A stretch of DNA of 34,199 nt from Desulfobacteraceae bacterium (lineage in GTDB: Bacteria; Desulfobacterota; DSM-4660; Desulfatiglandales; HGW-15). The translations under genes and the position numbers were made by a program. Position 1 is the first letter of the stretch; each line of letters begins with the position of its first letter. The stretch lies in contig JASFTV010000003.1 in NCBI GenBank assembly GCA_050050615.1, forward strand, positions 1 through 34,199. Reading direction: 5' to 3'. Of the stretch, positions 7,733-30,006 are shown piece by piece. Under the pieces are notes generated by a model that saw only the letters and a program-made list of their open reading frames with translations, was not told the origin of the DNA and ran no database searches.

Positions 7733-7736
7733 TAAC

Positions 7737-8156: not shown

Positions 8157-8186
8157 GGGAGTTCCTCTTGAGGTTGCCTGCTAACC

Positions 8187-8285
8187 GCTACCCCCGTTCG
8201 CATAGCCCTTCCCGCATTCTCTTCGTTTTTGAAAAGAGACCCCCATGACTCGCACGAAGCACCGATTCGTTTTTGAACAAGAATG
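8187..8285 (-). repeat. Dispersed 99-bp repeat, copy B
   Basis: Direct-orientation copy of 31-129, just upstream of yjbQ. Confidence 0.8.
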
Positions 8286-10665: not shown

Positions 10666-12225
10666 ATGAAACAAAAAGATTGGAAGCTCCTATTTATAGA
10701 TGATGAAGAGGGGATCCGAAGCGTGATGTCTATCACTCTGGCGGATGCGGGTTATGATGTGATGACCGCCGCAGATGGGGAAAGTGGCATCCAGATGTGT
10801 CGGGAAAAGTCGCCCCAGATTGTGATTACGGACATTCGTATGCCCGGTGTGGACGGGATCGAGGTCCTTGAGAGGATTAAGAAAGAAGACCCGAACAAAG
10901 AAGTTATTGTGGTGACAGCGTATGGGGAAATGGAAGTGGCCATTCGCGCCTTGCAACTTGATGCTTCGGACTTCATCACAAAACCCATTAATAATGAGGC
11001 CCTGTTTGTGGCTCTTGAGCGAGCCAAGGAACGCTACACCACCCGCAAGGAGTTGCATGACTACACGGCCCTCATCGAAGAGAGGTGGATGGATACGGCT
11101 GAAGAGTTGGCCAGGACCTTCAATTTCCAAAACAATCTGATTGAGAGTTCCATCGACGGCATTGTGGGCTGTGACAAAGAAGGAAAGATCGTGACCTTCA
11201 ACATACGCTCAGAGCAGATGCTGGGCTACTTAAAGGATGAAGTGCGCGGAAAAGTCTCTTTTGAGAAACTGCTCCCTGTGGGAACAGCCGATAAAATCAA
11301 AGAAGACTTATATTCCGATGAATACGGCGGCAAGAATCAGCTCTTTCTTTATGAGACCCATCTCATTACCAAGAAGGGAGAGAAGATTCCAGTGCAGCTA
11401 TCAGCAACGGTCCTGTTTGAGGGGGGTCAAGAGAGCGGCATGGTGGGCTTCATCCGGGACTTGAGAGAGATCCGGAGGCTGGAGCAGCAATTTGCCGATC
11501 AGACCCGGCTGCTGCAACAGCACAAGATGATTTCATTAGGGAGATTGGCCGCCAGTGTTGTCCATGAAATCAACAATCCCCTTGCAGGCATCCTCAATTA
11601 TGTTCGGCTCATGATCAAGATTGTGGGTCGTGGCTCTGCTTTAGCCCCTGAAACCCTGAAAAAATTCCAAAGATATCTTGATCTCATTGAGAGCGAGACG
11701 AGCCGATGTTCCAGGATCGTCTCCAATCTGCTCGCCTTTTCGCGGCAATCCAAATTGGAATTCAGCGAGGTGAACATTAATGAGCTTTTGGAAAAATGCC
11801 TCATGCTCAGTCAACACAGGCTCAGCCTCCAAAATATTGCCATAAAAACAGAACTGAATCCGGGGATTCCCCATATTTCTGGGGACTTCAACCAGATCCA
11901 GCAATGCGTTATCAATCTTATCTTCAATGCCATTGATGCCATGCCCGATGGGGGCGCGCTGACCTTAAAGAGTTCTCTGAATGCAAACAAAGGTGTTTTG
12001 GAGATAAAGATCGGGGATAGCGGATCCGGCATTGCCAAGGAAGACCTCCCCCATATTTTCGATCCCTTCTACACCACGAAAACCGAAGGGAGTGGGTTGG
12101 GGTTAGGTTTATCAACGGTTTACGGCATCATAGATCGACACAAAGGCACCATCACGGTAGATAGCGAATTGGGGAAGGGCGCTGTCTTCACCATCAGACT
12201 CCCGATGGAAAAAAGAGTGTCTTGA
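10666..12225 (+). CDS. Cytoplasmic hybrid sensor kinase (REC-PAS-HisKA-HATPase)
   Basis: REC motifs IDDE, ITDIRMP, TAYG and ITKP; PAS; H-box HEINNPL; N-box NLIFNAIDA; DSGSG; FDPFYTTK; GLGLGL. No TM segment evident. Confidence 0.92.
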   Translation: MKQKDWKLLFIDDEEGIRSVMSITLADAGYDVMTAADGESGIQMCREKSPQIVITDIRMPGVDGIEVLERIKKEDPNKEVIVVTAYGEMEVAIRALQLDASDFITKPINNEALFVALERAKERYTTRKELHDYTALIEERWMDTAEELARTFNFQNNLIESSIDGIVGCDKEGKIVTFNIRSEQMLGYLKDEVRGKVSFEKLLPVGTADKIKEDLYSDEYGGKNQLFLYETHLITKKGEKIPVQLSATVLFEGGQESGMVGFIRDLREIRRLEQQFADQTRLLQQHKMISLGRLAASVVHEINNPLAGILNYVRLMIKIVGRGSALAPETLKKFQRYLDLIESETSRCSRIVSNLLAFSRQSKLEFSEVNINELLEKCLMLSQHRLSLQNIAIKTELNPGIPHISGDFNQIQQCVINLIFNAIDAMPDGGALTLKSSLNANKGVLEIKIGDSGSGIAKEDLPHIFDPFYTTKTEGSGLGLGLSTVYGIIDRHKGTITVDSELGKGAVFTIRLPMEKRVS

Positions 12226-12489
12226 AGCGCCTATGTCGGTCCCTGAACGTGTGTTGCCTGTCCTCTCCCTTCTGTTTAATTGCTTTACACGGCATGCCCT
12301 TTCGAATATACTCCTTTCCAAGGCACCGTGATCGCTTCATCTAATTTCAGTTACATGCTACTGCTCTTTTGTCCTTCCCTTCCGAAAGGTTCTGTGTGAG
12401 GGTGCAGGGGGAATGGTGGGTTGATGAAGGCAGCATAGGATAAGACCTCATTCCACCTCTGAAACCATGGCTAGAGGGCAAGGGGTATC

Positions 12490-13701
12490 ATGAATCCTTC
12501 GGTCAATTTCAAAACCCTATACGATGTCTACAGGCATATCAGTGCTGTGGTGCATTCCAGCACGAATTTGGAGGAGGTTTTGGAACTGGTGGTTTGGAAG
12601 GCCTCCGAGGTGTTCGGTAGCAAGGGCGCGGTTCTCCGTACCTTCAATGTGGAGACGCAAGAATTTGATCTGTTCGCTTCCCATGGATTGAGTGAGAAAT
12701 ACCTGACCAAGGCCCCGGTTTCTAGCAAAAAATTGGTCACCGATCTCTGCCATCTGAATAAGCCCCTCATCATCAGGGATAATCTTGCAGATCCCCGTGT
12801 CAGAAATAGGGAGGAGTTGAAGGAAGATGGGATTCGGATGGTTATGGATATTCCACTCTGCCTGAGGGAGAATATCATCGGGATCATTCGAATTTATTTC
12901 GACCACGAAAAGGAGTTTTCTGATGAAATGCTGGATTTTGCTGCGGCCATAGGCGAGCTGTTTTCATGTGCGATAGATAAGGCGAAAATGATCGAAGAGC
13001 AACGGTCCCGATATGACCAACTAGCCCTCCAAACGGAAAAGCTTTCGTCCCTAGGTCGAATGGCGGCAGGCATCGCTCATGAGATCAATAACCCTCTGAC
13101 CGGGATCCTGCTTTTCAGCTCAAGGATGCGCAAGAAAGTCACGGAAGGAGGGCACATACAAGAGGGTCTGGATGTCATCATTCGGGAGACCCAACGGTGC
13201 AAGAGCATTATTCAGGATCTTTTGGAATTTTCTAGGGATAAGGATCCTGAGAAAGTCAAGGCAAACATTAACGACGTCATTGAAAAGGCCCTCAGCATCC
13301 TGGAAAACGAGTTCCGGCTGCATCACATCTCCGTGGAGAAGAACTTTTCGAGCGGAATGCCTTCTGTGCTTCTAGATGTGAACTTGATGCAACAGGTATT
13401 TGTGAACCTCCTAATCAATGCGGTTGAAGCTATTCAGGACAAGGGGGTGGTCACTGTCCGGAGCTATCTTAAACCGGACCGAAGGAGCGTGGGCGTAGAG
13501 GTTGCGGACACCGGGCCTGGTATCTCGTCAGATAATATGGGCAAAGTCTTTGACCCCTTCTTCTCCACCAAGAACAATGGGACCGGCCTTGGTCTGGCCG
13601 TGAGTTACGGAATCATCCAGAAACACCAGGGGAATATCCAAGTGTCCAGTAAATTAGAGGAGGGGACACGCTTCACCATTGAGATTCCCATACTGCAATG
13701 A
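12490..13701 (+). CDS. Cytoplasmic GAF-domain sensor histidine kinase
   Basis: N-terminal GAF-like region; AHEINNPL, NLLINAVEA, DTGPG, FDPFFSTK and GTGLGL motifs. Confidence 0.9.
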   Translation: MNPSVNFKTLYDVYRHISAVVHSSTNLEEVLELVVWKASEVFGSKGAVLRTFNVETQEFDLFASHGLSEKYLTKAPVSSKKLVTDLCHLNKPLIIRDNLADPRVRNREELKEDGIRMVMDIPLCLRENIIGIIRIYFDHEKEFSDEMLDFAAAIGELFSCAIDKAKMIEEQRSRYDQLALQTEKLSSLGRMAAGIAHEINNPLTGILLFSSRMRKKVTEGGHIQEGLDVIIRETQRCKSIIQDLLEFSRDKDPEKVKANINDVIEKALSILENEFRLHHISVEKNFSSGMPSVLLDVNLMQQVFVNLLINAVEAIQDKGVVTVRSYLKPDRRSVGVEVADTGPGISSDNMGKVFDPFFSTKNNGTGLGLAVSYGIIQKHQGNIQVSSKLEEGTRFTIEIPILQ

Positions 13702-13712
13702 ATTAACGAATC

Positions 13713-15134
13713 ATGAGCACTGAATCTGCCAAGATCTTGATTATTGATGATGAACAAATCATCTGCGATGGATGCCGTCTTGCGCTGGCAGACCAGGGGC
13801 ATGCCGTGGAATATTGCAAAGCAGGGAGGGCGGGTCTTGAGACAATTCGCGAAGGTGCATACGATTTGGTTCTGCTGGACATGAAGCTTCCTGATATGGA
13901 TGGGATGGAGATCCTGAAGACTGTACGCGAGGAAAAACCCGGCGTGTACATTATGGTCATGACCGGCTATTCCACGGTTCAGAACGCCGTGGAGGCCATG
14001 AAGCTGGGTGCCATCGATTATCTTGCTAAACCTTTCTCGGACGATCAACTGGTGCTCGCCGTGGAAAGGGTTGTGGAGAAAAAACGGCTGGTGGAAGAGA
14101 ACCTTTTCCTCCGAAAAGAGCTCCTTGATCGGTTTAGCTTTAGCAACATCGTGGGAGAGAACTCCAAGATCCTCGCAATATTCGATCAGATTGATAAGGT
14201 CGCCCCTACGGACAGCACAGTGCTCATCTATGGAGAGAGTGGAACGGGAAAGGAGCTATTCGCGAGGACTATTCATGCCCATAGCCAGCGGGCTGCCAGG
14301 CAATTCGTGGCGGTTGACTGCAGTACGCTTTCTCCAAGTCTTCTGGAAAGTGAGTTGTTCGGGCACGTGAAGGGGGCCTTCACTGGAGCGAGCCAAAACA
14401 AGGCAGGGATCTTTGAGGTGGCCCACGATGGAACGCTCTTTCTGGACGATGTGGCGAACCTGACTGGGGAGATCCAGGGAAAGCTCCTACGTGTTCTGGA
14501 AGGACACGATTACAAGCCGGTAGGGGCAAGTCAGTTTAAGAAGACGAACGTCCGGGTCATTGCTGCCACGAATAGGGATCTAAAGGTCATGGCGGACGAA
14601 GGGATTTTCAGGGAAGATCTCTTCTACCGATTGAACGTTTTCCCCATTATCCTCCCACCCCTAAGGGAGAGGAGAGACGACATTCCTAAACTCGCCTACC
14701 ACTTCCTGAGGCATTTCTGCAGGGAGACCGGGAAAAGGATTGAAGGATTCTCTGATGATGCCTTGGAGATGTTGGTGAACCATGAATGGCCAGGCAATGT
14801 GCGTCAACTGAAAAATGTGGTTGAACGCCTGGTCATCATGGCTGATCGCGGTATCCTGGATAGTCTTGATCTGCTGGAACCGCCACAAATGAAACGTTTT
14901 TTGAGGGAAGATTCAATCCCAGAGACTCTGGAAGAACTCAAGGCTGTTAAGAGACAACTCTTGGAAGAAAGTTACAGCCGGATGGAAAAAGCCTTTCTTC
15001 TCAAAGCCCTCAAGGCCTGTAACGGGAACATCACCCATGCAGCTGAGAGGGTCGGTATGCGGAGATCCAACTTCTCGACTTTGATGAAAAAGCATCACCT
15101 TTCAGGTAAACCCGCAAAGGGCGAAAACGAATAG
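13713..15134 (+). CDS. Sigma54-dependent response regulator (NtrC family: REC-AAA+-Fis HTH)
   Basis: REC LLDMKLP; GESGTGKE; GAFTGA; FREDLFYRL; WPGNVRQL; HTH GNITHAAERVG. Lies 11 nt after the GAF kinase. Confidence 0.93.
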   Translation: MSTESAKILIIDDEQIICDGCRLALADQGHAVEYCKAGRAGLETIREGAYDLVLLDMKLPDMDGMEILKTVREEKPGVYIMVMTGYSTVQNAVEAMKLGAIDYLAKPFSDDQLVLAVERVVEKKRLVEENLFLRKELLDRFSFSNIVGENSKILAIFDQIDKVAPTDSTVLIYGESGTGKELFARTIHAHSQRAARQFVAVDCSTLSPSLLESELFGHVKGAFTGASQNKAGIFEVAHDGTLFLDDVANLTGEIQGKLLRVLEGHDYKPVGASQFKKTNVRVIAATNRDLKVMADEGIFREDLFYRLNVFPIILPPLRERRDDIPKLAYHFLRHFCRETGKRIEGFSDDALEMLVNHEWPGNVRQLKNVVERLVIMADRGILDSLDLLEPPQMKRFLREDSIPETLEELKAVKRQLLEESYSRMEKAFLLKALKACNGNITHAAERVGMRRSNFSTLMKKHHLSGKPAKGENE

Positions 15135-15306
15135 CGCGCTCCCCACATAGACGCCCCTCATTAAAAGTCTCGGAAATTGTATAACTTTCTGAAATTAAAA
15201 GTAATTTTTGAGGCCCGACGTTTTTGCCCCGCATATGGAATGATGGCATATTGGAATTTTGATTTTAACTAACTTCTGAATAGTGGGGCCAAACGATGAG
15301 AGGCGT

Positions 15307-15393
15307 CGTATAATCGCCTATACGGCCCTAACCCACTAAGATCACTTCAGAGTTTATATTTCAACACGCTTTTGACGTATAAGTTCTTATACG
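15307..15393. promoter_or_regulatory. Pair of palindromic upstream activator sites CGTATA-N6-TATACG (15307-15324 and 15376-15393)
   Basis: CGTATAatcgccTATACG and CGTATAagttctTATACG lie about 110-195 bp upstream of a sigma54 promoter. Confidence 0.7.
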
Positions 15394-15501
15394 CTATGGC
15401 CCACCAATCACCGGTCCTCTCTCCCCTTTCATGCGCTTAACTCGCTAATATAACTAATAAAAATATCCGATCACCCTTGTGTCTCATAGATGCATCAAAC
15501 T

Positions 15502-15517
15502 TGGAACAGAACTTGCT
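15502..15517 (+). promoter_or_regulatory. Sigma54 -24/-12 promoter (TGGAACAGAACTTGCT) for the REC-REC-HdrA gene
   Basis: GG-N10-GC with TTGC, about 78 nt upstream of the probable start. Confidence 0.75.
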
Positions 15518-15594
15518 CACATCATATTTGAGATGAGAATAGATGAGAGGGGCTATCCAATGGAACTCAACCTTTTTGAAAAGGAGGAATGACC

Positions 15595-18500
15595 GTGAAT
15601 CAGGTCGCTGAAAGCATGAGAGACGACTACGCCGGGCAGCCCCAAATTCTTCTGATGGAGGATGAGTCCAGTGTGGCGCAGGGGCTTCAAATGATCCTGA
15701 GAGAAGAGGGTTATGGCGTGGATTTGGCTATGACGGGGCAGGGTGCTCTGGATACCTTGAGCCATAAAGATGTTGATCTCTTGGTAGCCGATCTCCGGTT
15801 GCCCGACATGGACGGCATGGAAGTGATTAGACACGTAAAGAAGAAGCAGCCCAAGACCGAGGTCATTGTCATTACGGGCTACTCAAATGTCTTATCAGCA
15901 GTGGAAGCCATGAAGACAGGCGTCTCCGACTACTTACCCAAACCGTTCACGGAGGAGGAATTCATGGCAAAAGTCCAGCGGGCGCTTAGAGAGAGAGAAG
16001 AAGCCCTTTCCAGAGAGAAGCTTGGGTTCGTGGAAAAAGGGGCGGAAATGGAGCAGGTGGCGGAAACCACGAAGGATGATTCCGCCTCTCAGCCCCAAAT
16101 CCTACTGATGGAGGATGAGTCCAGTGTGGCGCAGGGGCTCCAAATGATTCTCAAAGAAGAAGGTTATGGCGTGGATTTGACCATGACCGGAAAGAGTGCT
16201 CTGGATACCTTGAGCCATAAAGATGTTGATCTCTTGGTGGCCGATCTCCGGTTGCCCGACATGGATGGTATGGATGTGATTAGACACGTAAAGAAGAAGC
16301 AACCCAAGACCGAGGTTATTGTCATTACGGGCTACTCAAATGTCTTATCAGCCACGGATGCCATGAGAGCGGGCGTTTCCGACTATCTGCCCAAACCCTT
16401 CACTGAAGAGGAGTTCATGGCAGCGGTTGGGAGGACCTTGAAGGAGAGACAGGAAACTCTCTCCAAGGAGATCCGTGAATCCGTTGAGGCTGAAACTGGT
16501 GAGCTCGTCAAAATAGGGTTCTATATCTGCCATGGCGGGACCCATATTGCAAATAAGGTCTGGGTGGAGGATGTGATTGCCTTTGCCCGGAAGCAGCCGA
16601 ATGTGTTGCTGGCTAGAGATTATGATTACCTGTGCCAGGCTCCGGGCCTGGAGATGATTAAGAAAGACATCAGGGAGCTTGGCGTGAATCGAGTCGTCGT
16701 TGCAGCATGCAGCCCGAAACCCTACGGAAAGACCTTTAAGGAGGCCTGCCAGCAAGCAGGCCTCAAAGCTCAGCATTTCCAGATGACCCCTGTGCGCGAA
16801 CAGGTTGCATGGATCACCGAGGACCCCGCTGAAGCAACCAGGAAGGCAAAAACGCTGGCCGCAGCGGCTATCCACCGGGTGAAATACCATCGAACCCTTA
16901 CTGGCCGGGAGGTGAATGTACATCCTGATGTCCTGGTTGTCGGTGGCGGCATCGGGGGCATGCAGGCAGCCTTGGACATAGCCGAAGCCGGGCACAAGGC
17001 CTACCTCGTGGAAAGGCAGTCAACCATTGGCGGCCATATGCTTCAGTTTGATAAGACCTTCCCCACCCTGGATTGTGCGGCCTGTATTGGAACCCCGAAG
17101 ATGGTCTCGGTTGGGCAAAACCCAAATATCGAGCTTCTCACCTGTAGCGAAGTGAAGGAAATATCCGGCTTTATTGGCAACTATAAGGTGAAAATCCATC
17201 GTAGACCGAGGTACGTAAAAGAGGGCATCTGTACAGGCTGCGGTGAATGCGCCAGCGTCTGTCCTGTTACAAGACCAAACGAATGGGATGAAGGCCTTTC
17301 CGAAAGAAAGGCGATATACAGGTCCTTTCCCCAGGTCGTACCCATAACCTTTGCCATCGAAAAGAAGGACCGGGCCCCCTGCGTGGCCACTTGTCCCGCA
17401 GGTGCAAACGTCCAGGGTTATGTCCAACTCATAGGACAGGGTAAATATAAGCAGGCAGTCCAGCTGATTATGGAACGCGTGCCGTTGCCCGGAGTGCTCG
17501 GTCGGGTCTGCCCGCATCCTTGTGAAGCTGAATGCCGAAGAATTGAGGTGGATGAAGTTCTGTCCATCAGGGATTTAAAGCGTTTTGCTGCCGACCAGGT
17601 GAACCTGAGGGAACTCCCCCATCCGAGGATCGAGGAGCGCCCCGAAAAGGTTGCCGTGATTGGCTCCGGCCCTGCCGGCCTCACGGTGGCTTATTATCTT
17701 CGGCTTAAAGGTTATCAGGTGACCATCTTTGAGGCATTGCCTGTACTGGGAGGTATGCTCAGGGTGGGCATCCCCGATTATCGGCTCCCCCCGGAGGTAT
17801 TAGACCAGGAGATCGATTACATTCTCGGTCTGGGTGTTGAGGTGCGAAGGGGCGCAAGTCTGGGCCCTGATTATACGTTCGTCGACCTTAAGGAACAGGG
17901 TTTCGAGGTCATATTTCTTGGTATCGGATCTCACCGTGGCATGAAGTTAAACATTCCGGGAGAGGAGGATTTTGAAGGGGTTCTGGATGCCGTGGATTTC
18001 CTGAGAGCGGTGAATCTGGGAAACCGGGAAATGCCCGGAAGGCGTGTGGTCATCATCGGAGGCGGCAATGTGGCCATTGATGCAGCTCGAACAGCGCTTC
18101 GACTTGGTTCTGAAAAGGTGAGTATTGTATACCGCCGAACCCGGAAGGAAATGCCAGCTTATGAGGAAGAAGTCGAGGAAGCCCTGGCAGAGGGCGTCAA
18201 GATCCATTATCTAACAGCACCTGTGCGCATCCATGGTTCCGACGGAAAGTGCACCGGACTGGAATGCATCAAAACCGAGTTGGGAGAACGGGATGCTACC
18301 GGGCGTAGTCGACCAGTGCCTGTAGAGGGCTCCGAATTTGTCATGGACCTTGACGGGGTCATACCAGCCATCGGGCAGCAGCCTGATCTAGATGGGGTTG
18401 AGCATGAACCATCTCCTAAAACAACCCGTTGGGGCACTTTAGTTGTGAAACCCCATACGATGCAGACTTCCATCCCCTATGTGTTTGCTGGGGGTGATGC

Positions 18501-19911: not shown

Positions 19912-19994
19912 AAGACAAGACAGCCTTCAGAAAAGGCATCATCACTTTTGGGTCGAGTAGAAAATGTTCTCCTTAGCAAGAAGGAGGTATGGTC

Positions 19995-21722
19995 ATGAAT
20001 CAGGTGGCTGAAACCATAAGAGATGATTCCGCCGGGCAGGCTCGAATCCTTCTGATAGAGGATGAGTCGAGTGTGGCACAGGGGCTTCAAATGATCCTCA
20101 GAGAAGAGGGTTATGGCGTGGATTTGGCCAGGACGGGACAGAGTGCTCTGGATACCTTGAGCCATAAAGATTTTGACCTCCTGGTGGCCGATCTCCGATT
20201 GCCTGACATGGATGGCATGGAGGTGATTAAGCATGTAAAGGATGAGAGTCCGGATACCGAGGTTATCGTCATCACAGGATATGCAAACGTCCCATCAGCA
20301 GTGGAAGCCATGAAGACAGGCGCCTCCGGGTACTTGCCCAAACCGTTCGCGGACGACGTGTTCAAGGCAGCGGTGGAGGAGGCCCTGAAAGAGAAGAAGC
20401 GGGTGCCCACCGGGAACCACTTTAAGCCAGTGCAGCGTGAGGAAAAAAAGCTCATACAGAAGAGGGAAGTGATGCGAGTCCTGAAAAGAGCTTCCGATTT
20501 CATCACCAAGCCTTTTGATGATAAACCCATCATCGTCGGTCTTGATCGGGCCAGAGAGAATTACACGACCATGATGGAAGGGAGGGCAACGGACACATCC
20601 GAGGAGCTGGCAAAAACCATCCACTTCAGAAATAATCTGATTGAAAGCTCAATTGACGGCATTCTAGGGTGCGATAAAGATGGGAAAATCATCACTATCA
20701 ATAGAAGCCTGCAGAAGAACTTAGGTTATTCTCGGAACGAAGTATGCGAGAAAATGTCGTTCGATCAACTTCTTGAGATGGGGGGAGCAGAGAAGTTCAG
20801 AGAGAAACTGTATAGTGAAGAATGCGGAGGGAGAAACCGACTATTCCTCTTTGAGACAAACCTTGTTGACAAAACAGGAAAGAAAGTCCCGGTCCAGGTC
20901 TCGGCAACGGTCATGTTTGAGGAGGATATAGAGATAGGCATTGTGGCTTTCTTCAGGGACCTGAGAGAGCTCAGAAGACTGGAACGACAAATGACAGATC
21001 AAACCTCGCTCCTTCATCAGGACAAAATGATGTCCCTGGGCAGACTGGCCGCCAGCGTTGTCCATGAAATTAATAACCCTCTTACGGGCATCCTGAATTA
21101 TCTTCGACTTATGAGTAAGATCATGAATCGGGATGCCCTGAACCCGGAACATATACGTAAATTTCAAAGGTATTTGGATGTTGCCGAGAGCGAAACAGAC
21201 CGCTGCTCAGGGATCGTTTCCAATCTGCTCGCTTTCTCACGGAAATCCAAAATGGAATTTGGTGAGATGAGTGTCAATGAATTGCTGAAACGGTGCATTA
21301 TGCTCAGCCAGCACAAACTCACCTTGCAGAATATTCAGATCAAGACCGAACTGCAACCTGAGATTCCGCTCGTATGGGGAGACTTCAACCAGATCCAGCA
21401 ATGTGTGATCAATCTCATCTTTAACGCCATCGATGCCATGCCCGAAGGAGGTACGCTGAGCATTGGAAGTGCCTTGGATTCAAAAAAAAGGCTGGCAGAA
21501 ATAACGATCCGGGATACGGGATGTGGCATTCCCAAAGAGGATCTGCCCAATATCTTCGAGCCATTTTTCACCACCAAAGTGGAGGGAAAGGGACTCGGCC
21601 TCGGCCTATCCACCGTGTACGGCATCGTGAACCGGCACAAGGGAACGATGGCCGTGGAAAGTGAGGTAGGGCAGGGCACCACCTTCCACATCAAACTCCC
21701 TATCAGAAAGCCTGAAGGATGA
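19995..21722 (+). CDS. Cytoplasmic hybrid sensor kinase (REC-PAS-HisKA-HATPase), paralog of 10666-12225
   Basis: REC domain nearly identical to those of the HdrA fusion; PAS and kinase closely match the 10666 gene (NNLIESSIDGI, HEINNPL, GDFNQIQQCVINLIFNAIDAMP). ATG 19995 fits the RBS (ORF track starts at 19989). Confidence 0.92.
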   Translation: MNQVAETIRDDSAGQARILLIEDESSVAQGLQMILREEGYGVDLARTGQSALDTLSHKDFDLLVADLRLPDMDGMEVIKHVKDESPDTEVIVITGYANVPSAVEAMKTGASGYLPKPFADDVFKAAVEEALKEKKRVPTGNHFKPVQREEKKLIQKREVMRVLKRASDFITKPFDDKPIIVGLDRARENYTTMMEGRATDTSEELAKTIHFRNNLIESSIDGILGCDKDGKIITINRSLQKNLGYSRNEVCEKMSFDQLLEMGGAEKFREKLYSEECGGRNRLFLFETNLVDKTGKKVPVQVSATVMFEEDIEIGIVAFFRDLRELRRLERQMTDQTSLLHQDKMMSLGRLAASVVHEINNPLTGILNYLRLMSKIMNRDALNPEHIRKFQRYLDVAESETDRCSGIVSNLLAFSRKSKMEFGEMSVNELLKRCIMLSQHKLTLQNIQIKTELQPEIPLVWGDFNQIQQCVINLIFNAIDAMPEGGTLSIGSALDSKKRLAEITIRDTGCGIPKEDLPNIFEPFFTTKVEGKGLGLGLSTVYGIVNRHKGTMAVESEVGQGTTFHIKLPIRKPEG

Positions 21723-21781
21723 TTCGTCCAAGTCTTGTAAACAATGGCTACAATAGGCATAGCTAAAGGCAACACTTCTGT

Positions 21782-21815
21782 AACAGCTTAATTTTAAATG
21801 ACTATTTAAGCTGTT
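21782..21815. other. Perfect 10-bp inverted repeat AACAGCTTAA-N14-TTAAGCTGTT (terminator-like or protein-binding site)
   Basis: Seen directly, 60 nt after the kinase stop codon. AT-rich and without a clear U-tract. Confidence 0.35.
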
Positions 21816-21961
21816 CCCCGTCTTATCCCTTCGCAGTGTAGCCGTTTCCTTCATCATTTTTCCGCACGTAGACTTCTTCCAAAAGCACAAGCCTGAACCA
21901 AACGCAAGATCATTCAATCATTTCAGATACCTAAACCTAGAAAGGGCCACGTTTCGTTTTG

Positions 21962-21977
21962 TGGCATCCTCGTTGCT
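21962..21977 (+). promoter_or_regulatory. Sigma54 -24/-12 promoter (TGGCATCCTCGTTGCT)
   Basis: Near-consensus TGGCA-N6-TTGC (GG-N10-GC) upstream of the Cys-motif/GcvH-like genes. Confidence 0.78.
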
Positions 21978-22042
21978 TATATAGAGAGAAGAGGGCTTAG
22001 CGGAAGGAACCGTGAACCCCCAAAATCCTTAGTGATGACGAG

Positions 22043-22270
22043 GTGGTGGAGGTGAGGCATAGAATCATTCAAGCGGAAGCGAGGCGTCTGTCATACCGTG
22101 GCCATTGTATCCACGCTACAAAGGCTCGGACAAGCATACCCAAGATCTGCACTCGCAATTATGAGTGTTGGCATTGTGCCTTTGAGCAGTGGCTTGAGAC
22201 GATTGAAGAGGCACATCAGGCTGAGGGAAGCTGCCCGGTGGGGAGCAGTCTCTTATCAAAAGGCGCGTGA
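22043..22270 (+). CDS. Small protein with one C-x13-C-x5-C-x2-C motif, homologous to the N-terminal repeats of the next gene
   Basis: CIHATKARTSIPKICTRNYECWHCAFEQWL matches CRHALTGRVNAPKICTMNYECYHCPYDQML in 22307-23251. Start uncertain. Confidence 0.7.
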   Translation: MVEVRHRIIQAEARRLSYRGHCIHATKARTSIPKICTRNYECWHCAFEQWLETIEEAHQAEGSCPVGSSLLSKGA

Positions 22271-22306
22271 GGGATTGAAACACGTTCGAAGGAAGGAGCC
22301 AGAAAA

Positions 22307-23251
22307 ATGAAGGACAGAAAAGCAGCCAAAGAAAGAGGCAAGAAGAAGGAAAGGGTTCAGGGTTTCCAGGTCCTTGAACAGGAATGTATCTGGATGAAGG
22401 CGGGGGTCGTCAACTTCCGTCTCTGTGACAACGCCTATGATTGTTACAATTGTCCATTTGATCGCGGGATGAGAAAAGCGATGAATTTGGAACCGCAATC
22501 TGAGACCGGAGAGAGCCAGCCGGCATGGGTGGCGCATTTGAAGAGGAACTATCATGGCGCCTCTCGTCAGTGCCGCCATGCTTTGACGGGTCGCGTCAAT
22601 GCACCTAAGATATGTACCATGAACTACGAGTGCTACCATTGCCCTTACGATCAAATGCTGGATGAACTGGATATTGCCCGCCCTGCAGAGGCTCCCAGTT
22701 ACCAACTCGCCTCAGGGTATCGAATGGCTCAAGGCTATTATTATCATATGGGGCACAGCTGGGCTCGTTTTGAGCATGGTGGGCGTGTCAGGGTAGGATT
22801 TGATGATTTCCTCGTCAAGGTTTTTGGTGCCCCCAAAACCCTTACCCTTCCATTCCTGGGATCTCATTTGGTGCAAAACCAGGTGGGATGGTCATTCGCC
22901 CGGGATGATCACCGAGCCGCTGTTTTATCGCCCGTGTCAGGAACCGTCCTCGCTGTGAACCACAAGGCCCAAGACCACCCTGAAATCAGCCGGGAGGATC
23001 CTTATAGGGAAGGGTGGTTATTCATCTTGGAACCGAAGATGCCGAAGAGGGATCTTAAAGGACTCTATTTTGGGGATGACAGCTTTCAATGGATGGAGCA
23101 CGAAACCAAAGAACTGATGTCGCTTATGGGACCGGAATATGAACAATTGGCAGCCACAGGGGGTACACCGGTCAGCGACCTCTTCGGTCAGTTCCCGGTT
23201 GTCGGATGGGATAGCCTGGTGCGCACATTTCTCCGCACTGAAAAGATGTGA
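22307..23251 (+). CDS. GcvH (H-protein)-like protein lacking the lipoyl lysine, with two N-terminal 4-Cys repeats
   Basis: YYHMGHSWAR, VRVGFDDF, LSPVSGTVLAVN and DPYREGWL motifs. The ESVK motif is replaced by ARDDH. AAGGAG RBS. Confidence 0.85.
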   Translation: MKDRKAAKERGKKKERVQGFQVLEQECIWMKAGVVNFRLCDNAYDCYNCPFDRGMRKAMNLEPQSETGESQPAWVAHLKRNYHGASRQCRHALTGRVNAPKICTMNYECYHCPYDQMLDELDIARPAEAPSYQLASGYRMAQGYYYHMGHSWARFEHGGRVRVGFDDFLVKVFGAPKTLTLPFLGSHLVQNQVGWSFARDDHRAAVLSPVSGTVLAVNHKAQDHPEISREDPYREGWLFILEPKMPKRDLKGLYFGDDSFQWMEHETKELMSLMGPEYEQLAATGGTPVSDLFGQFPVVGWDSLVRTFLRTEKM

Positions 23252-23266
23252 AAAGTCGACTTCATT

Positions 23267-23362
23267 CTAGTGTGTTGTAACACAAATAACTTATCCAAAT
23301 GACAACGACGACCGCCGGCTGCGATAGAAGGTTGTCAAGTTATTTACGACACACAACACTAG
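23267..23362. mobile_element. 96-bp MITE-like element with CTAG ends and imperfect terminal inverted repeats
   Basis: Left end CTAGTGTGTTGTAACACAAATAACTT; right end reverse-complemented CTAGTGTTGTGTGTCGTAAATAACTT. Partial second copy at 27127-27195. Confidence 0.6.
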
Positions 23363-23407
23363 AAGCCCGGTCCTTCGAGACGGGTCCTATGGGTGCGGAT
23401 TCTTTGC

Positions 23408-23998
23408 TCACACCTCCTTTGACTCTTCAGTGCTTGTGTCACGAGGTCTGCTGAGGGTGAGGGCATCCCTCAGATAGACCGAGCAATACCTGCAGAAGTA
23501 GAGGGGCGTCCTATCTAAGTCTTCAATCTCCCCCGAAAAGCGCATAAGACACCTCTCATCCGTACAGTGGTGAAGATTGTACAGATGGCCCAGTTCATGG
23601 AGAGCGACCTTGGCTGCTCTCTCGATTTGAAGAGATGTGGCTGAACTGGGAACCTCAGAGCGGGTCTGTAGCCTGTGTAGAGAGACCAATGCAAATTTCC
23701 CTCCTTGCGTTGCCTCGCCAAAAACGTGGGTGAAGATTGGCACATATAGATCGACATCAAGGAGGCCAATCACCTTGTCGTAGTCATGAAAGGGCATGGA
23801 TTCAAAGGCATTAAGTATAGCACCCGCGTCATACTGAACCCGCCTTTCGTCGTAGGCATAGGTGGGATGGTCTAAGGGCGGGTGGATATCTGCGTCCAAG
23901 TTTAGATAACCGAGAATATGGGCCGCAATGGATTTTAGTGTGATTTCGGAAACTTTCCCAATGGGGACGATGCAGATAGGTCTCTGTTTTGAGCTCAT
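23408..23998 (-). CDS. amzA: Archaemetzincin-family Zn metalloprotease
   Basis: HELGHLYNLHHC-x4-CLM...FCRYC (HExxHxxxxxH plus Cys4 site); also RVQYDA, VDLY and VFGEA. Confidence 0.85.
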   Translation of the reverse strand: MSSKQRPICIVPIGKVSEITLKSIAAHILGYLNLDADIHPPLDHPTYAYDERRVQYDAGAILNAFESMPFHDYDKVIGLLDVDLYVPIFTHVFGEATQGGKFALVSLHRLQTRSEVPSSATSLQIERAAKVALHELGHLYNLHHCTDERCLMRFSGEIEDLDRTPLYFCRYCSVYLRDALTLSRPRDTSTEESKEV

Positions 23999-24023
23999 GG
24001 GCTGCGATTTTCCGCTGATGAGA

Positions 24024-25382
24024 TCAAGGTCTTGTCAAGTTGTGCCGTTTGATCATTTTGTGTAGGCTCACTCGATTAATATCCAGGATCTTGGAGGCCT
24101 TGGTCACATTCCAGTCGCAATCTACCAAAATCTGATGGATATAATCCTTTTCCATTTCACGCAGCGATCGCGGCTTTAGGCTCGGCATTGAAGAAGGGCG
24201 CAAAAAGGAGAAATCGCCGAGCCGGAGCGTCCTGGATTTGGATAGGACGACCGCTCTCTCAACAGCATTCTCTAATTCTCTCACGTTTCCAGGCCAGTCA
24301 TATTCTTCCAAAAGCCGCATGGCATCTCGGCTGACATGATCAACCCGTTTCGTCGTTTGATGGCTATATTTTTGAAGGAAATGCTGAACAAGGAGTGAAA
24401 TGTCCTCCTTCCTTTTTCTCAAAGGAGGAACGGGGATCGTAATCACGTTGATTCGATAGAAAAGGTCTTCTCGGAAAGTCCCCTTTGAGACCTCCTGCTC
24501 CAAGTCTTTTCTGGTGGCGGATATCAATCGAAAATCCACGTCGACAGGGAGTCTATCTCCGAGCTTGATGATTTTCTTTTCTTCCAGTACACGTAAAAGA
24601 TCGACCTGCATTTTCCGGCTGATCTCTCCTATTTCATCAAGGAAAAGGGTGCCGCCGGAGACGACTTCAAAGAATCCTTTGCGGGGGTGGTCTGCACCGG
24701 TAAAGGCTCCCTTCTGATGGCCGAAGAGCTCACTCTCCAGGAGGGTATCCGGAAGGGCACCACAGTTGATGGCGATAAATGGCAGGTGGGAGCGTTTGCT
24801 TTTGGCATGGATCGCTTTGGCTACCAGTTCTTTTCCAGTGCCTGTTTCCCCAACAATGAGAATGGAAGAATCGCTTTGTGCAACCTCTGGGATGAGATCG
24901 AAGACCTCCTGCATGGGTCGCGATTGGCCTATGATGTTATCGAAACGAGTGACTTCCTCCAACCGCCCTTTCATGTATTGATACTCGAAAGCCAACCTCT
25001 TTTGAGTGGCAACCTTTTCCAGAACAAGGGAAAGTTGGTCGGGTTTGAAGGGTTTGAGCAGATAGTCCACAGCCCCCATTTTCATTGCCTCCACGGCGGT
25101 CTCAATAGAACCGTAGGCCGTGATAATGATGACGATGGTGTCGGGGTATTCCTCCTTTACTTTTCCCAAAAGCTCAATGCCGTTCATGCCAGGCATCTTG
25201 ATGTCTATGAAGAGGAGATCAAAAGGGACCTTTTCAAGTTTTTCAAGAGCCTGAAAGCCTGAGGCTGCTGTTTCGACCTTGTGTCCGTATTTTTGAAACC
25301 AATGAAGAAAGGATTGCCGGACTATCCTTTCATCATCCACGACCATAATGCTCATCTTTTGATCCATGGCGGTTCTTCCCAT
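24024..25382 (-). CDS. Sigma54-dependent response regulator (NtrC/AtoC family)
   Basis: VDDE, IDIKMP, GETGTGKE, GAFTGA, LFLDEIG, WPGNVRELEN and HTH WNVTKASKIL. The start may be 25367. Confidence 0.93.
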   Translation of the reverse strand: MGRTAMDQKMSIMVVDDERIVRQSFLHWFQKYGHKVETAASGFQALEKLEKVPFDLLFIDIKMPGMNGIELLGKVKEEYPDTIVIIITAYGSIETAVEAMKMGAVDYLLKPFKPDQLSLVLEKVATQKRLAFEYQYMKGRLEEVTRFDNIIGQSRPMQEVFDLIPEVAQSDSSILIVGETGTGKELVAKAIHAKSKRSHLPFIAINCGALPDTLLESELFGHQKGAFTGADHPRKGFFEVVSGGTLFLDEIGEISRKMQVDLLRVLEEKKIIKLGDRLPVDVDFRLISATRKDLEQEVSKGTFREDLFYRINVITIPVPPLRKRKEDISLLVQHFLQKYSHQTTKRVDHVSRDAMRLLEEYDWPGNVRELENAVERAVVLSKSRTLRLGDFSFLRPSSMPSLKPRSLREMEKDYIHQILVDCDWNVTKASKILDINRVSLHKMIKRHNLTRP

Positions 25383-25395
25383 GCCTCCCTGGAAG

Positions 25396-26931
25396 TTATT
25401 GGATAGGGAAAGCTAAGGTGAAAACGCTTCCCTTTCCGACCTGGCTTTCCACTTTAATGTTCCCTTTATTCGCTCTTACAACACCGTGCACGATGGATAA
25501 CCCAAGCCCGGTCCCTTCTCCCTCTTCTTTAGTGGTGAAAAACGGATCAAAGATATGATCCACATTCTCCTCCGGGATCCCACACCCGGTATCCTGAATC
25601 TGTACAATAGCATTCTTTGAGGATTCGTCGAGCTCGGAGATCACGCTCAGTTTACCCCCCTGCGGCATAGCCTCAACGGCGTTGAAGATGAGATTGAGGA
25701 AACACTGTTGCAACTGGTTGATGTCTGCGTTAATGATTAAGGGTCTGGAAGCAATTTTTGTAATCAAATAGATATCCTGGATCTCCATCTTGTGGTGTGT
25801 CAAGGTAATAACTTCCTCCAGGATCTCATTAAGGTCAACGTTTTTGTGCTCTACTTCTGATTGACGGGAAAAAGAGAGCAGGCTGGATATGATGTTTCCG
25901 CACCGCTCCAACTCACTAGACATGATTGAAAGATAATCCCTGAATGCTTCTAGCTCCTCTGAACTTGGAGCTCCTCTTTCCAGTGTTGTTTCCATAAGAC
26001 GGCTGAATGTGAGTAGTCCCTGAATGGGATTGTTAATTTCGTGCACGCTACTCGCCACCAGTTTTCCCAGGGAGATCATTCGATCCTCTTGGATCAGCTT
26101 TTTCATGTCCGCCTTGAGTTCACTGATTCGTCGTTCCCATCTGGATGAAAGCTCCTCAGTGATATCCCTCCATATCTCTATGACCCGCACAATTTCGCCC
26201 GTCTGATCTTTCAAGGGATAGGTCACCATATTGCAGTAAATGGCATGCCCATCAGAAGTCGGGTGCTCGTGAAGGACATGGGCGGATTCTCCTGTTCTCA
26301 AGGTTTCCAGCAAGGGACATCCCAGTTCTGGGTGCGAACTGGAACAGGGCGCACTGAGGCCATGGGTGATTTCATAGCAGTGGGCCCCAATGACTTCCTC
26401 TTTTGGTTTCGCTACAGCCTTTAAATAGGCTTCATTTGCCTCGATGATGCTAAAATCAGACGTCAATACGATGATCCTTTCATTGGCCTGTTGGATCAGA
26501 AAGTCCGAGGCCCCCTTCTGAAGTTCCACCTGTTGCGCTGCACATCTCAGCCCTTGATTCATAATGAAAAGACTTCTCAATAGCCTACCGATGTTGTGTT
26601 CCAGAACGCCTACCCCTTTTGGCCTGACACGGATAAGTTCGAGAAGCACGTCCCGGCTATTGGTTAACTCAAGGACGCCGTCGAGGTTTTGGATTTTGAA
26701 GAGATCACGGAAATCATTTGTCGTATGAATCCCCATCTCTTTGGCAAGAAGAAAGCCTTCCGCCTCCGCATTCACATCACAGACCCCGACGACCTTTACG
26801 TTGAGGTAGGGGAAGAGGTCTTTCTGGAGAAGTCCCAAGAAAAATTTGCAAGCTCTCCCTCCTCCGACGATCGCCAGATTGAAAGATAGTTTTTCAGAAA
26901 CATGATTTGAGGTACTGTCCTTCTCCATCAT
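25396..26931 (-). CDS. Cytoplasmic sensor kinase with N-terminal Rossmann-like domain and Cys/His-bearing PAS domain
   Basis: LAIVGGGRAC..VVGVCD N-terminus; PAS with CYEITHG..PC..CP; HEINNPI, NLIFNAVEA, DTGCG and GTGLGL. Start at ATG 26931 or 26928 (ORF track starts at 26961). Confidence 0.88.
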   Translation of the reverse strand: MMEKDSTSNHVSEKLSFNLAIVGGGRACKFFLGLLQKDLFPYLNVKVVGVCDVNAEAEGFLLAKEMGIHTTNDFRDLFKIQNLDGVLELTNSRDVLLELIRVRPKGVGVLEHNIGRLLRSLFIMNQGLRCAAQQVELQKGASDFLIQQANERIIVLTSDFSIIEANEAYLKAVAKPKEEVIGAHCYEITHGLSAPCSSSHPELGCPLLETLRTGESAHVLHEHPTSDGHAIYCNMVTYPLKDQTGEIVRVIEIWRDITEELSSRWERRISELKADMKKLIQEDRMISLGKLVASSVHEINNPIQGLLTFSRLMETTLERGAPSSEELEAFRDYLSIMSSELERCGNIISSLLSFSRQSEVEHKNVDLNEILEEVITLTHHKMEIQDIYLITKIASRPLIINADINQLQQCFLNLIFNAVEAMPQGGKLSVISELDESSKNAIVQIQDTGCGIPEENVDHIFDPFFTTKEEGEGTGLGLSIVHGVVRANKGNIKVESQVGKGSVFTLAFPIQ

Positions 26932-27126
26932 GCTCCCATCCTTTCTCCTCCGGGCTGTCAAATCCCGAAAAGACCTTCATAATGCTCGGCCAACCTTGGC
27001 TTTCAGTCCCTGCGATCGATGGGTTTCATGGTTCAAGCAAAGGAGGTGTAAGTGCAGGCCAATAGAAATACCCGAAACAAGAGCCCCATTTCAGGAATGA
27101 GGCTCCCTTCTTCTCATGCGCGTCTG

Positions 27127-28297: not shown

Positions 28298-28401
28298 TCC
28301 TTCTTGCTCCACGCTCGGCTTTTGCGAACCTGACGACGACATTGTTTGAAGTCTCACGCCCGCTCCCCCGACCCATCGGCCTCGCTCGAGCACCGAGGGC
28401 C

Positions 28402-29238: not shown

Positions 29239-29363
29239 TACACAACTCAATTTGTTACTTGCGTCAAATAGTTGACTGCTTAGATGGTTCGTTCACTCTT
29301 GATAGCTCCTTCACTTCTCGACCAACAGACCACTCAACCATTGAAATGTGATCTCTTATTGTT

Positions 29364-29795: not shown

Positions 29796-29844
29796 ATGAT
29801 CTCTTTCCTCCATCTATCTTGTCGAGTTCTTTTAAAGCTTTTGA

Positions 29845-29968: not shown

Positions 29969-30006
29969 AGCCCTTGATATGGAATATCAGAAAAGCGAAT
30001 ACCCCC

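Follow-up and report, generated by a model that had tools for sequence, protein, structure and literature searches.

The window analysed here is the whole of contig C3 (34,199 bp) of a Desulfobacteraceae bacterium assembly that amounts to 3.57 Mb and is 84% complete. Its central part encodes an HdrL-type oxidoreductase preceded in the same polypeptide by two receiver (REC) domains, together with four histidine kinases (K1 to K4), two sigma-54 activators (A1 and A2), a GcvH-like protein with eight invariant cysteines, a small open reading frame (ORF) with a related Cys motif, and a peptidase of family M54 (Table 1). With a confidence a little above even, we read these genes as two adjacent, separately regulated sigma-54 cassettes (10666-21722 and 21746-26961), the first of which contains an HdrL that would be controlled twice, once in its synthesis and once in its activity. 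Throughout, G labels denote related genomes, L labels fetched loci and P labels database protein clusters; the closest database proteins are labelled as Desulfobacterales, Desulfobacteraceae or Thermodesulfobacteriota metagenome-assembled genomes (MAGs).

The gene inventory given in a preliminary description of this DNA stands. Its four kinases without transmembrane helices were recovered by Pfam with the architectures REC-PAS (twice), GAF, and PAS behind another N-terminal domain, and the H-box HEINNP is present in all of them. Their highest 19-residue Kyte-Doolittle mean is 1.23-1.36, and over the proteins of the region it is at most 1.4, against 2.61 in the neighbouring MFS transporter that served as a control; by this measure K1-K4 have no membrane helices and are predicted to be soluble. 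The two sigma-54 activators, six receivers and two sigma-54 promoters were likewise confirmed, by Pfam, by aligned residues and by the conservation of the sites in place. A1 and A2 each combine REC, AAA+ (with GAFTGA) and HTH_8 and are accompanied by a GG-N10-GC target of the -24/-12 type with enhancer-like sites upstream, which is the make-up of NtrC-type systems, and all six receivers (in K1, A1, K3 and A2, and twice in HdrL) have the acidic pocket, the phospho-accepting Asp, the Thr and the Lys. By count alone the sigma-54 motif is not above chance, with 25 matches at no more than two mismatches against 17.5 +/- 4.4 in shuffled sequence; both sites are, however, positionally conserved in related loci. 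The non-regulatory genes are, as described, the HdrA fusion, two Cys-motif proteins and a protease, which is the M54 peptidase.

An HdrL with two N-terminal receivers

Compared with PDB chains by phmmer, the fusion protein matches HdrA at E 3e-198 (8rvu_a) and E 1e-182 (5odc_A) in two collinear pieces, HdrA residues 7-305 corresponding to residues 302-599 of the window protein and HdrA residues 300-652 to residues 1069-1431, the latter including the ferredoxin domain. The N-terminal, FAD and C-terminal ferredoxin domains of solved HdrA are thus all represented. The intervening insert of about 470 residues matches NfnB, the glutamate synthase small subunit and dihydropyrimidine dehydrogenase (Fer4_20 and Pyr_redox_2, residues 595-985), with NfnB/GltD chains aligning over residues 595-1078, and because this NAD(P)H module sits between the two HdrA pieces, it interrupts the inserted-ferredoxin domain of HdrA. 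REC1 and REC2 occupy residues 20-129 and 171-280 (Response_reg, 190.8 bits over two stretches) and are joined to the HdrA part by a linker in which Pfam finds nothing significant. The protein also reaches 558.7 bits with the NCBIfam model NF009410 (cut-off 516) and contains two GxGxxG motifs (one at residue 452) and four CxxCxxCxxxC motifs. An HdrA with a GltD/NfnB-like NAD(P)H module in the same polypeptide is what the available part of PMC2702500 defines as HdrL. Judged by these alignments, the enzyme is of the HdrL type, that is, an HdrA with an inserted NfnB/GltD-like NAD(P)H module.

The likely start is the GTG at 15595, which is favoured by ribosome-binding sites in five loci. The recorded gene call P0001 (1406 residues) starts within REC1 and is probably too short; homologues and ribosome-binding sites back the longer form.

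The enzyme had been described as an orphan HdrA, a description that needs correction. No HdrB/HdrC (CCG, PF02754) or HdrD is encoded with it on contig C3, the next gene is K3 rather than mvhD, and the contig has zero matches to PF02754 or to FlpD/MvhD (PF02662), the flx genes not having been searched by name, against 15 and 6 matches, respectively, elsewhere in the assembly. The protein is an HdrL, and the same assembly holds a paralogue without receivers (63% identity, contig C43) that does have mvhD and other partners.

The full REC-REC-HdrL architecture is found in 18 database clusters at 58-77% identity, and both receivers keep Asp, Thr and Lys in every one of these 18 fused homologues, one of which has three receivers. 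HdrL-like proteins of about 1500 residues in relatives, many with an in-frame TGA, are 45-50% identical to the window HdrL, which itself has no selenocysteine. The N-terminal CHCG motif (window 16528-16539, residues 314-317) reads CHGG in the window, G067 and G014 and is kept (once as CYCG) in 12 MvhD-linked orthologues without receivers. Since the second Cys is lost in 3/3 genome loci, we considered whether this marks the REC-REC clade, but CHGG occurs in 13 of the 18 database homologues and the remaining five keep a second Cys; the loss is thus not a rule, and its link to the absence of MvhD is only a tendency.

Receivers in HdrL clusters of relatives

Genomes of the same family contain receiver-less HdrL orthologues of 1136 residues (62-74% identity) in clusters that read kinase(s), Usp, REC, PAS-PAS sigma-54 activator, solo REC, HdrL, MvhD, FrhB/FdhB-like Fe-S protein and an HdrA-like protein of about 1140 residues. 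The C43 cluster of the window's own assembly contains four further REC matches. MvhD and the Fe-S protein lie 3' of HdrL in all 11 testable loci, the solo REC gene lies directly 5' of it in 8/11, and a sigma-54 promoter-like element is found 40-100 nt 5' of the solo REC in 6/11. The HdrA-like protein encoded downstream contains a canonical REC of its own in seven of nine testable loci (L021:1-2949(-), L015:1744-5172(-), L022:12971-16399(+) and others). This REC interrupts the inserted-ferredoxin domain at the point where HdrL has its NfnB/GltD module, and HdrA seems to possess a hot spot for insertions there. With only 23-25% identity to REC1 and REC2, the solo REC constitutes a separate lineage. 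Compared with these loci, the window copy has two receivers fused to its N-terminus, lacks mvhD and the partners, and is followed by a kinase. Two apparent single-REC fusions suggested by tblastn, in G021 and G014:C422, each proved to consist of two genes, a solo REC and then a separate HdrL.

Receivers thus accompany HdrA-type genes in three architectures, as an N-terminal REC-REC, as a solo REC 5' of HdrL and as a REC inserted in HdrA, and these three separate attachments are our main argument that the receivers act on the enzyme and are not a mere phosphate sink.

The K2-A1 circuit

Searching with the first 450 residues of HdrL, we found REC-REC relatives in 5/61 genomes of the family and 5/209 genomes of the order. 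The seven loci of the first cassette come from five genomes of the family (the window, G014, G067, G043 and G060) and two MAGs (L048 and L050), and in all seven K2-A1 stands directly 5' of a REC(-REC)-HdrA-type gene. Orthologues of K2 (50-60% identity) adjoin orthologues of A1 (66-71%) in G014, G067, G043 and G060, and L048 and L050 likewise pair a K2-like gene with an A1-like one (phmmer, 560 and 424 bits). The closest arrangement is that of G067 (also L049): MFS, K1, K2, A1, REC-REC, HdrL, K3 and orp-like genes, with 56-72% identity to the window proteins, K1 being kept 5' of K2 (68%) and REC-REC and HdrL being two overlapping ORFs. In G014, K2, A1 and the fused protein reach the end of the contig, and in L048, a Desulfobacterales MAG, K2, A1, the fusion and K3 follow directly behind the tail of a receiver-less HdrL cluster, K1 being absent 5' of K2. 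G043 and G060 combine K2-A1 with a separate REC-REC protein, a plain HdrA (in-frame stops read as selenocysteine), MvhD, and FdhB-like and FdhA-like proteins; L050, a Desulfohalobiaceae MAG, has the same arrangement with a single REC. To judge from these gene orders, the GAF-kinase/activator/promoter/REC(-REC) cassette is portable: it stands before HdrA-type operons of different make-up and extends into another order.

A -24/-12 element precedes the REC gene in all seven loci (TGGAAC-N5-TTGCT in five, variants of it in G060 and L050), and paired palindromes resembling CGTATA-N6-TATACG are present about 110-200 nt upstream in the five loci inspected (as imperfect copies in the relatives), with one further copy in L048. 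The exact palindrome occurs twice in the whole 3.57-Mb assembly, both times before promoter 1. Regulation of loci elsewhere by the activators, which the preliminary description had considered, is therefore not predicted for A1.

The spacer between HdrL and K3 measures 78 nt and contains no terminator-like hairpin on the + strand; scans for terminators and sigma-70 promoters were at chance overall (16 against 17.0 and 18 against 16.1) and were used for this spacer only. K3 lies 3' of HdrL in 3/3 testable HdrL-type loci, including G067 and L048. Most genes of the window are matched, at 99% identity or more, by small contigs from three metatranscriptome assemblies that carry three study codes, the parts without such contigs giving no evidence of silence; one contig (19670-19991) contains the end of HdrL and the whole spacer to K3, and another (15561-15728) starts downstream of promoter 1. 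On this comparative evidence A1 almost certainly drives the HdrL-K3 operon, and the earlier proposal that the GAF kinase/activator pair induces REC-HdrA together with a co-transcribed kinase is well supported, by synteny and promoter in 7/7 loci each and by the unique palindromes.

Receivers and their likely phosphodonors

Within the window protein REC1 and REC2 share 86-89% identity, and both resemble the K3 receiver at 72-77%. Their alpha-1 helix, SSVAQGLQMILREEGYG, is common to REC1, REC2 (with one Arg/Lys change) and the K3 receiver and different in A1, A2 and K1, so that the receivers of the window fall into four alpha-1 classes. The same three receivers share a 300-nt direct repeat (15596-15895; 16049-16348, 89%; 19996-20295, 84%) which begins at the likely GTG start and spans the leader and the first two thirds of each receiver. 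As the DNA identity of the repeat is as high as the protein identity, it suggests recent gene conversion among REC1, REC2 and the K3 receiver. In five deep-branching homologues the identity between REC1 and REC2 drops to 51-54%; their duplication is therefore old, and their high identity here secondary. A general concerted evolution of the two receivers was considered and rejected, since the internal identity (89%) exceeds that to every orthologue only in the window protein, with P0010 coming close (80% against 78 and 77).

On the kinase side, the helix of the dimerization and histidine phosphotransfer domain that follows the phospho-His is nearly identical in K1 and K3 and different in K2 and K4. 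We infer that phosphotransfer would run from K2 to A1, from K4 to A2, and from K1 and/or K3 to REC1, REC2 and the K3 receiver. The second, post-translational layer of control that had been proposed for the enzyme is plausible, because both HdrL receivers keep Asp, Thr and Lys in 18/18 homologues.

The second cassette

In its full form the second cassette consists of the small Cys and Cys-GcvH genes divergent from M54-A2-K4. We found it in seven orthologous loci, an eighth being cut by a contig end; the GcvH-like proteins share 63-75% identity with their window counterpart, and the M54, A2 and K4 proteins 50-80% with theirs (A2 orthologues reach 70-80% in eight loci, counting a cut-off copy in L033 and a two-piece match in L034). 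A paralogous form, in which the GcvH-like protein is 31-40% identical and mostly occurs as a tandem pair, is complete in six loci and partial in two. A regular expression finds TGGCA(T/C)-N5-TTGC before the cargo genes in 16/20 loci; two more have TGGCC(C/T) variants, and the remaining two have less than 280 nt of upstream sequence. The palindrome GGCTACA-N5-TGTAGCC lies about 215 nt 5' of the promoter in the six loci inspected (the window, L029, L031, L035, L036 and L037). The window copy has three mismatches by manual count, and a genome scan that allowed two missed it and is uninformative on the A2 regulon.

The N-terminal domain of K4, which the preliminary description had called Rossmann, was confirmed as such by its predicted fold. 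Pfam gives a weak GFO_IDH_MocA match (PF01408, E 0.002, 19.2 bits, below the cut-off of 24), and the sequence contains a VGGGRAC loop and a VGVCD strand. The AlphaFold2 model of the first 120 residues (predicted local distance difference test, pLDDT, 91) is a five-stranded Rossmann domain followed by a long helix, and its top Foldseek matches are NAD(P)-binding domains (probability 1.0, E 9e-5 to 5e-3), the best being 1nvm_B, an acylating acetaldehyde dehydrogenase (E 9e-5), with Gfo/Idh/MocA dehydrogenases also among them; an ESM Atlas look-up of this N-terminus gave no usable match. According to this model the domain has a Rossmann fold of the NAD(P) type, for which nucleotide binding is predicted. 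The earlier proposal that the phosphorelay would sense intracellular redox cofactors is favoured here by this fold only. The domain (window 26602-26889) also occurs well beyond this locus, in 581 representative clusters at E <= 0.001 with the consensus LNxAIVGGGxxC...IxGVADxNP. It heads signalling proteins in 9/10 matches scanned (PAS-kinases, a PAS-HD-GYP protein and a PAS-LuxR protein), is present in three copies in P0241, and was recognised by Pfam in none of the 10 scanned proteins.

Archaemetzincins are recognised by an HExxH...H zinc site followed by four Cys. The peptidase of the cassette has both, in the form HELGHLYNLHHC-x4-C...C-x2-C, and scores 152.9 bits with NCBIfam NF033823 (cut-off 145). 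In every locus of the cassette (window 23408-25382, L029-L047) the kinase-activator operon ends with M54, whose zinc site is intact, and faces the GcvH-like gene, a strictly conserved pairing of a peptidase gene with two-component genes. One idea is that the peptidase processes the Cys-rich protein.

The Cys-rich GcvH-like protein

The GcvH-like protein scores 50.5 bits with Pfam GCV_H and is matched by PDB GcvH chains at E 1e-9, but it remains below the cut-off of NCBIfam GcvH (52 against 117 bits). The lipoyl Lys of the solved GcvH chains aligns to Asp or His, and in the alignment of 24 homologues no Lys occurs in that column. By these comparisons the protein is predicted to have the GcvH fold but not to be a member of GcvH. 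Its invariant residues are C27, C40, C46, C49, C89, H91, C103, C109, C112, H147 and H150, nine of which fall in two C-x12/13-C-x5-C-x2-C units, and a helical extension is conserved at its C-terminus. The small ORF is a free copy of the unit with the C-x13-C-x5-C-x2-C spacing; tblastn matches to it (41-54% identity) lie directly 5' of the GcvH-like gene in 7/9 orthologous loci, and an RNA-library contig (22132-22392) bridges the two genes in the window. Pfam finds nothing significant in the Cys-motif region or in the small ORF. The recorded call P0121 (285 residues) starts after a basic N-terminus (window 22307-22393), and homologues and ribosome-binding sites back the longer form. Selenocysteine in GcvH-like paralogues was considered and rejected, the apparent internal TGA codons being natural stop codons at the ends of matches.

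A link to HdrA-type enzymes, which the preliminary description did not foresee, comes from gene fusions and neighbourhoods. All four GcvH-like homologues longer than 550 residues (P0391-P0394) are HdrA/HdrL-type proteins that carry the domain. The fusion examined in detail is of the HdrL type and has the GcvH-like domain (49% identical) at its C-terminus, residues 1358-1563. G062 has the same HdrA-GcvH fusion in an HdrA-MvhD cluster, with a free Cys-GcvH-like gene and a K4-like kinase beside it. Furthermore, the second cassette adjoins selenocysteine-type HdrL-MvhD genes in G011 and G023 and lies about 3-5 kb from the receiver-less HdrL cluster in G010 and G017, and by manual count an HdrA-family gene is found within about 10 kb of it in 8/20 loci. 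Because of these fusions and this proximity, we take the GcvH-like protein as a candidate accessory or acceptor subunit of HdrA/HdrL enzymes, an assignment to which we give somewhat less than even weight; as such a subunit, its position beside a partner-less HdrL would be meaningful.

Feature coordinates and flanking genes

Table 1 Features of the two cassettes in the window (strand and basis as reported)
Feature	Position	Strand	Description	Basis
K1	10666-12225	+	REC-PAS-HisKA-HATPase hybrid kinase, predicted soluble	Pfam
K2	12490-13701	+	GAF-HisKA-HATPase kinase, predicted soluble, presumed A1 partner	Pfam
A1	13713-15134	+	NtrC-type sigma-54 activator: REC, AAA+, HTH_8; GAFTGA at residue 221	Pfam
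Enhancer-like palindromes	15307-15324 and 15376-15393		CGTATA-N6-TATACG, predicted A1 sites	Only exact matches in the assembly
Sigma-54 promoter 1	15502-15517	+	TGGAACAGAACTTGCT (TGGAAC-N5-TTGCT), HdrL-K3 operon	1 mismatch to consensus
REC-REC-HdrL	15589-19911	+	Receiver-HdrL fusion, 1440 residues	Pfam, NCBIfam
K3	19989-21722	+	REC-PAS-HisKA-HATPase kinase, predicted soluble	Pfam
Degenerate palindrome	21746-21764		GGCTACA-N5-TGTAGCC, predicted A2 enhancer, about 215 nt upstream of promoter 2	
Sigma-54 promoter 2	21962-21977	+	TGGCATCCTCGTTGCT (TGGCAT-N5-TTGCT), small-Cys/Cys-GcvH operon	
Small Cys-motif ORF	22043-22270	+	75 residues as listed; C-x13-C-x5-C-x2-C unit	
Cys8-GcvH-like protein	22307-23251	+	314 residues; two 4-Cys motifs and GCV_H	Pfam
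M54 peptidase	23408-23998	-	Archaemetzincin type; last gene of K4-A2-M54 operon	Pfam, NCBIfam
A2	24024-25382	-	NtrC-type: REC, AAA+, HTH_8; GAFTGA at residue 225	Pfam
K4	25396-26961	-	N-terminal Rossmann domain (residues ~25-120), PAS, HisKA, HATPase	Pfam, AlphaFold2, Foldseek

The left flank (window 1-10324) holds housekeeping genes, namely NAD(P)HX repair YjeF, AcpS, PdxJ, YbeY, a 7TM-HD protein, PhoH and UPF0047, and the MFS transporter, which is the left neighbour of K1 in G067 as well. On the other side, the minus strand of window 27431-33867 carries an orp-like cluster of two Fer4-ParA NTPases, a NifU-like protein, an Mrp-NifX fusion and three Nitro_FeMo-Co (orange-protein-like) genes, with a sigma-54-like site, TGGCACAGAAAGTGCT, at 33852-33867 just 5' of the first gene. 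Such a cluster adjoins the first cassette in G067 and the second in G015. It resembles the orp operons of D. vulgaris, which the available part of PMC8359166 describes as controlled by sigma-54 and OrpR, an activator that is redox-sensing.

Proposed model and alternatives

In the model that we favour, K2 would phosphorylate A1, which would bind the palindromes at 15307-15393 and open the promoter at 15502, yielding a transcript for REC-REC-HdrL and K3. HdrL has a flavin/iron-sulfur HdrA core of the electron-bifurcating type; the reaction that it most likely catalyses links NAD(P)H to ferredoxin and a third acceptor, and it may be viewed as a response regulator that has an enzyme as its output domain. 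Phosphorylation of REC1 and REC2, for which K3 and/or K1 are the likely donors, would change the dimerisation of the receivers and thereby the oligomeric state or the activity of the HdrA core, so that the enzyme would be controlled twice, in its synthesis by K2-A1 and in its activity by the receivers. K4 probably reads NAD(P)(H) through its Rossmann domain and would activate A2, which in turn would drive the promoter at 21962 and the production of the small Cys protein and the lipoyl-less GcvH-like protein with its eight Cys. The cargo proteins of the two cassettes probably work together. The phosphotransfer steps, the effect on activity, the ligands and substrates, and the contact between HdrL and the GcvH-like protein are all parts of the model that we infer.

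A number of points weigh against this model. The cassettes are separate in G067, and the second mostly occurs without the first. K3 is absent from three of the seven loci of the first cassette. In G043, G060 and L050 the REC(-REC) is a separate protein before a plain HdrA-MvhD-Fdh operon, and in G067 the REC-REC forms an ORF of its own, whether truly separate or split off by a frameshift; these arrangements would also fit receivers that act in trans, or whose target is the signalling pathway and not the enzyme. The phosphodonors are guessed from helix similarity only. The enzyme stays far below the NCBIfam cut-offs for HdrA/HdrA2 (721, 557 and 530 bits against 1100, 1400 and 1300), and the AlphaFold2 model of the GcvH-like protein, in which most of residues 130-310 exceed a pLDDT of 90, is of low confidence in the Cys region, residues 1-130. 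As regards sampling, statements on genome-wide uniqueness cover the assembled part of an 84% complete assembly, the order-wide search scored eight candidates per genome only, and the neighbourhood count of 8/20 includes related genomes and comes without a measured background. The RNA contigs are of low depth and strandless, may include DNA carry-over, and give presence and not level.

The preliminary description had instead taken the region as a single 16-kb island, in which a single branched phosphorelay, made up of the two activators, all four kinases and the six receivers, converges on the HdrA fusion. We now consider this unlikely. Such an island would fit the adjacency of the genes and the solubility of all the proteins, a REC density about 20 times the expectation (six of the 60 REC matches of the assembly within 16.3 kb, where 0.27 would be expected), and the paralogy of K1, K3 and K4 over PAS-HisKA-HATPase; it would also fit the fusion of second-cassette cargo to HdrA/HdrL elsewhere and the repeated vicinity, at about 3-5 kb, of the second cassette to receiver-less HdrL clusters in G010 and G017. 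However, the second cassette is self-contained, having its own enhancer palindrome and promoter, unlike those of A1, and all 13 of its complete relatives (seven orthologous, six paralogous) occur without the first cassette, and the receiver alpha-1 helices fall into four classes. It is also missing from the collinear region of G067, where K3 is followed by 2.3 kb of other genes and then by the orp-like cluster, the second cassette being on another contig, and this absence implies that the supposed island is two modules side by side. In the comparison of gene neighbourhoods that had been proposed as a check, each cassette is conserved in its gene order, but the two are not kept together.

We regard it as slightly less likely again that REC-REC is an A1-induced phosphate sink or feedback element of the K2-A1 pathway, its fusion to HdrL being without effect on the enzyme. 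Single-domain receivers that serve as phosphate sinks are an established device, what stands directly behind the A1-dependent promoter is a free-standing REC(-REC) protein in G043, G060 and L050 and a free-standing ORF in G067, and K2 is the sole kinase in the fetched part of L050. On the other hand, 18 database clusters, with identities as low as 58%, retain the fusion, two unrelated receiver types, the solo and the inserted REC, are also tied to HdrL/HdrA, and A1 has an alpha-1 helix unlike that of REC1/REC2, which speaks against a common donor.

That the HdrL moiety is a sensor of the NAD(P)H/ferredoxin redox state, signalling to its receivers and K3 instead of serving as a catabolic enzyme, we consider improbable: although the operon contains no partner gene, a kinase occupies the place that mvhD has in 11/11 testable receiver-less loci, the second Cys of CHCG is Gly in the window, G067 and G014, and the L048 copy, right behind a complete receiver-less HdrL cluster, could be a duplicate free to change its function, all FAD/NAD(P)H and cluster motifs are intact, the identity to MvhD-linked orthologues is 62-74%, 5/18 fused homologues keep the second Cys, and receivers N-terminal to another domain normally control that domain.

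Relation to known systems

The nearest described relatives of the enzyme are the HdrL proteins of Desulfobacterium autotrophicum HRM2, an HdrA/glutamate-synthase fusion with NADH sites (available parts of PMC2702500 and PMC5947623), and of Syntrophobacter fumaroxidans (Sfum_0824), where HdrL, MvhD and an Fe-S protein lie next to hdrABC and are abundant with sulfate (available part of PMC5947623). As far as these sources describe them, they share with the window protein a soluble HdrA and a GltD/NfnB-like module in one chain, and they come from Desulfobacterota as well. In HRM2, mvhD follows all HdrL loci, and the legend of the figure on its hdr loci lists a 'response regulator', a 'histidine kinase' and a 'CheY-like regulator' (available part of PMC2702500). 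The window protein differs in its two N-terminal receivers, in the REC-PAS kinase that stands in place of mvhD, and in having no selenocysteine. The HdrA of methanogens (MvhAGD-HdrABC and Fdh-Hdr; PDB 5odc, 8rvu and 7bkb) aligns with it over the N-terminal, the thioredoxin-reductase-like FAD and the C-terminal ferredoxin domains; unlike methanogen HdrA, the window HdrL has the 470-residue NfnB/GltD insert, no HdrB/C or MvhD nearby, and Gly in place of a Cys of CHCG.

With regard to control, the closest parallel is the adh-hdr/flx system of D. vulgaris (DVU2394/DVU2395), in which DVU2394, a response regulator of the sigma-54 type, controls an hdr-like operon, adh-hdr (available part of PMC3333781). 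The control described in that part is transcriptional only, on an enzyme without a receiver and through a direct-repeat site, whereas the predicted site in the window is a palindrome. A literature search, outside the coverage of which lay most subscription journals and supplements, found no published receiver fused to or inserted in HdrA/HdrL. HdrL itself and the sigma-54 two-component control of hdr genes are thus already known, and what would be new is a response regulator with an HdrL output within an otherwise ordinary NtrC-type regulon.

CheB, PleD and RpfG are response regulators with one or more N-terminal receivers and an enzymatic output, the receivers of PleD being in tandem. The output in the window differs from theirs in being a 1140-residue flavin/iron-sulfur oxidoreductase of energy metabolism and not a signalling enzyme. 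Lipoate-binding LbpA proteins, which are of the GcvH type and occur with sulfur-oxidising Hdr-like (sHdr) systems, provide a parallel for the second cassette: the GcvH-like protein shares its fold with GcvH and its genomic association with HdrA-like proteins with LbpA. It differs from both in having no lipoyl Lys (in 24 members), in its eight invariant Cys, in its C-terminal extension and in its fusion to HdrA/HdrL.

In methanogens, sulfate reducers and syntrophs alike, energy conservation relies centrally on HdrA-type complexes, and to our knowledge hardly anything is known of their regulation beyond transcription. A joint reading of both cassettes, which we offer tentatively and hold to be less likely than the two-cassette model itself, is that His-Asp phosphorylation gates HdrA-type bifurcating enzymes, to which receivers have been attached three times in this Desulfobacterales family, so that two-component signalling, and not transcription alone, would switch within seconds how electrons pass between NAD(P)H, ferredoxin and an acceptor, be it a thiol or a protein. 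The GcvH-like protein would then replace HdrBC as a dedicated partner or acceptor and would be made under a K4-type Rossmann sensor that reads NAD(P)(H), a domain not yet described as a signalling module.

Should the receivers be nothing more than a feedback sink, the finding would amount to an ordinary sigma-54 two-component regulon around an enzyme type that is already known. Three leads emerge from the locus, namely the portable GAF-kinase/activator/REC cassette, the kinase/activator/M54 cassette over the GcvH-like protein, and the widespread Rossmann sensor domain. The receiver-HdrL fusion offers a purifiable case for the question whether phosphorylation can switch flavin-based electron bifurcation.

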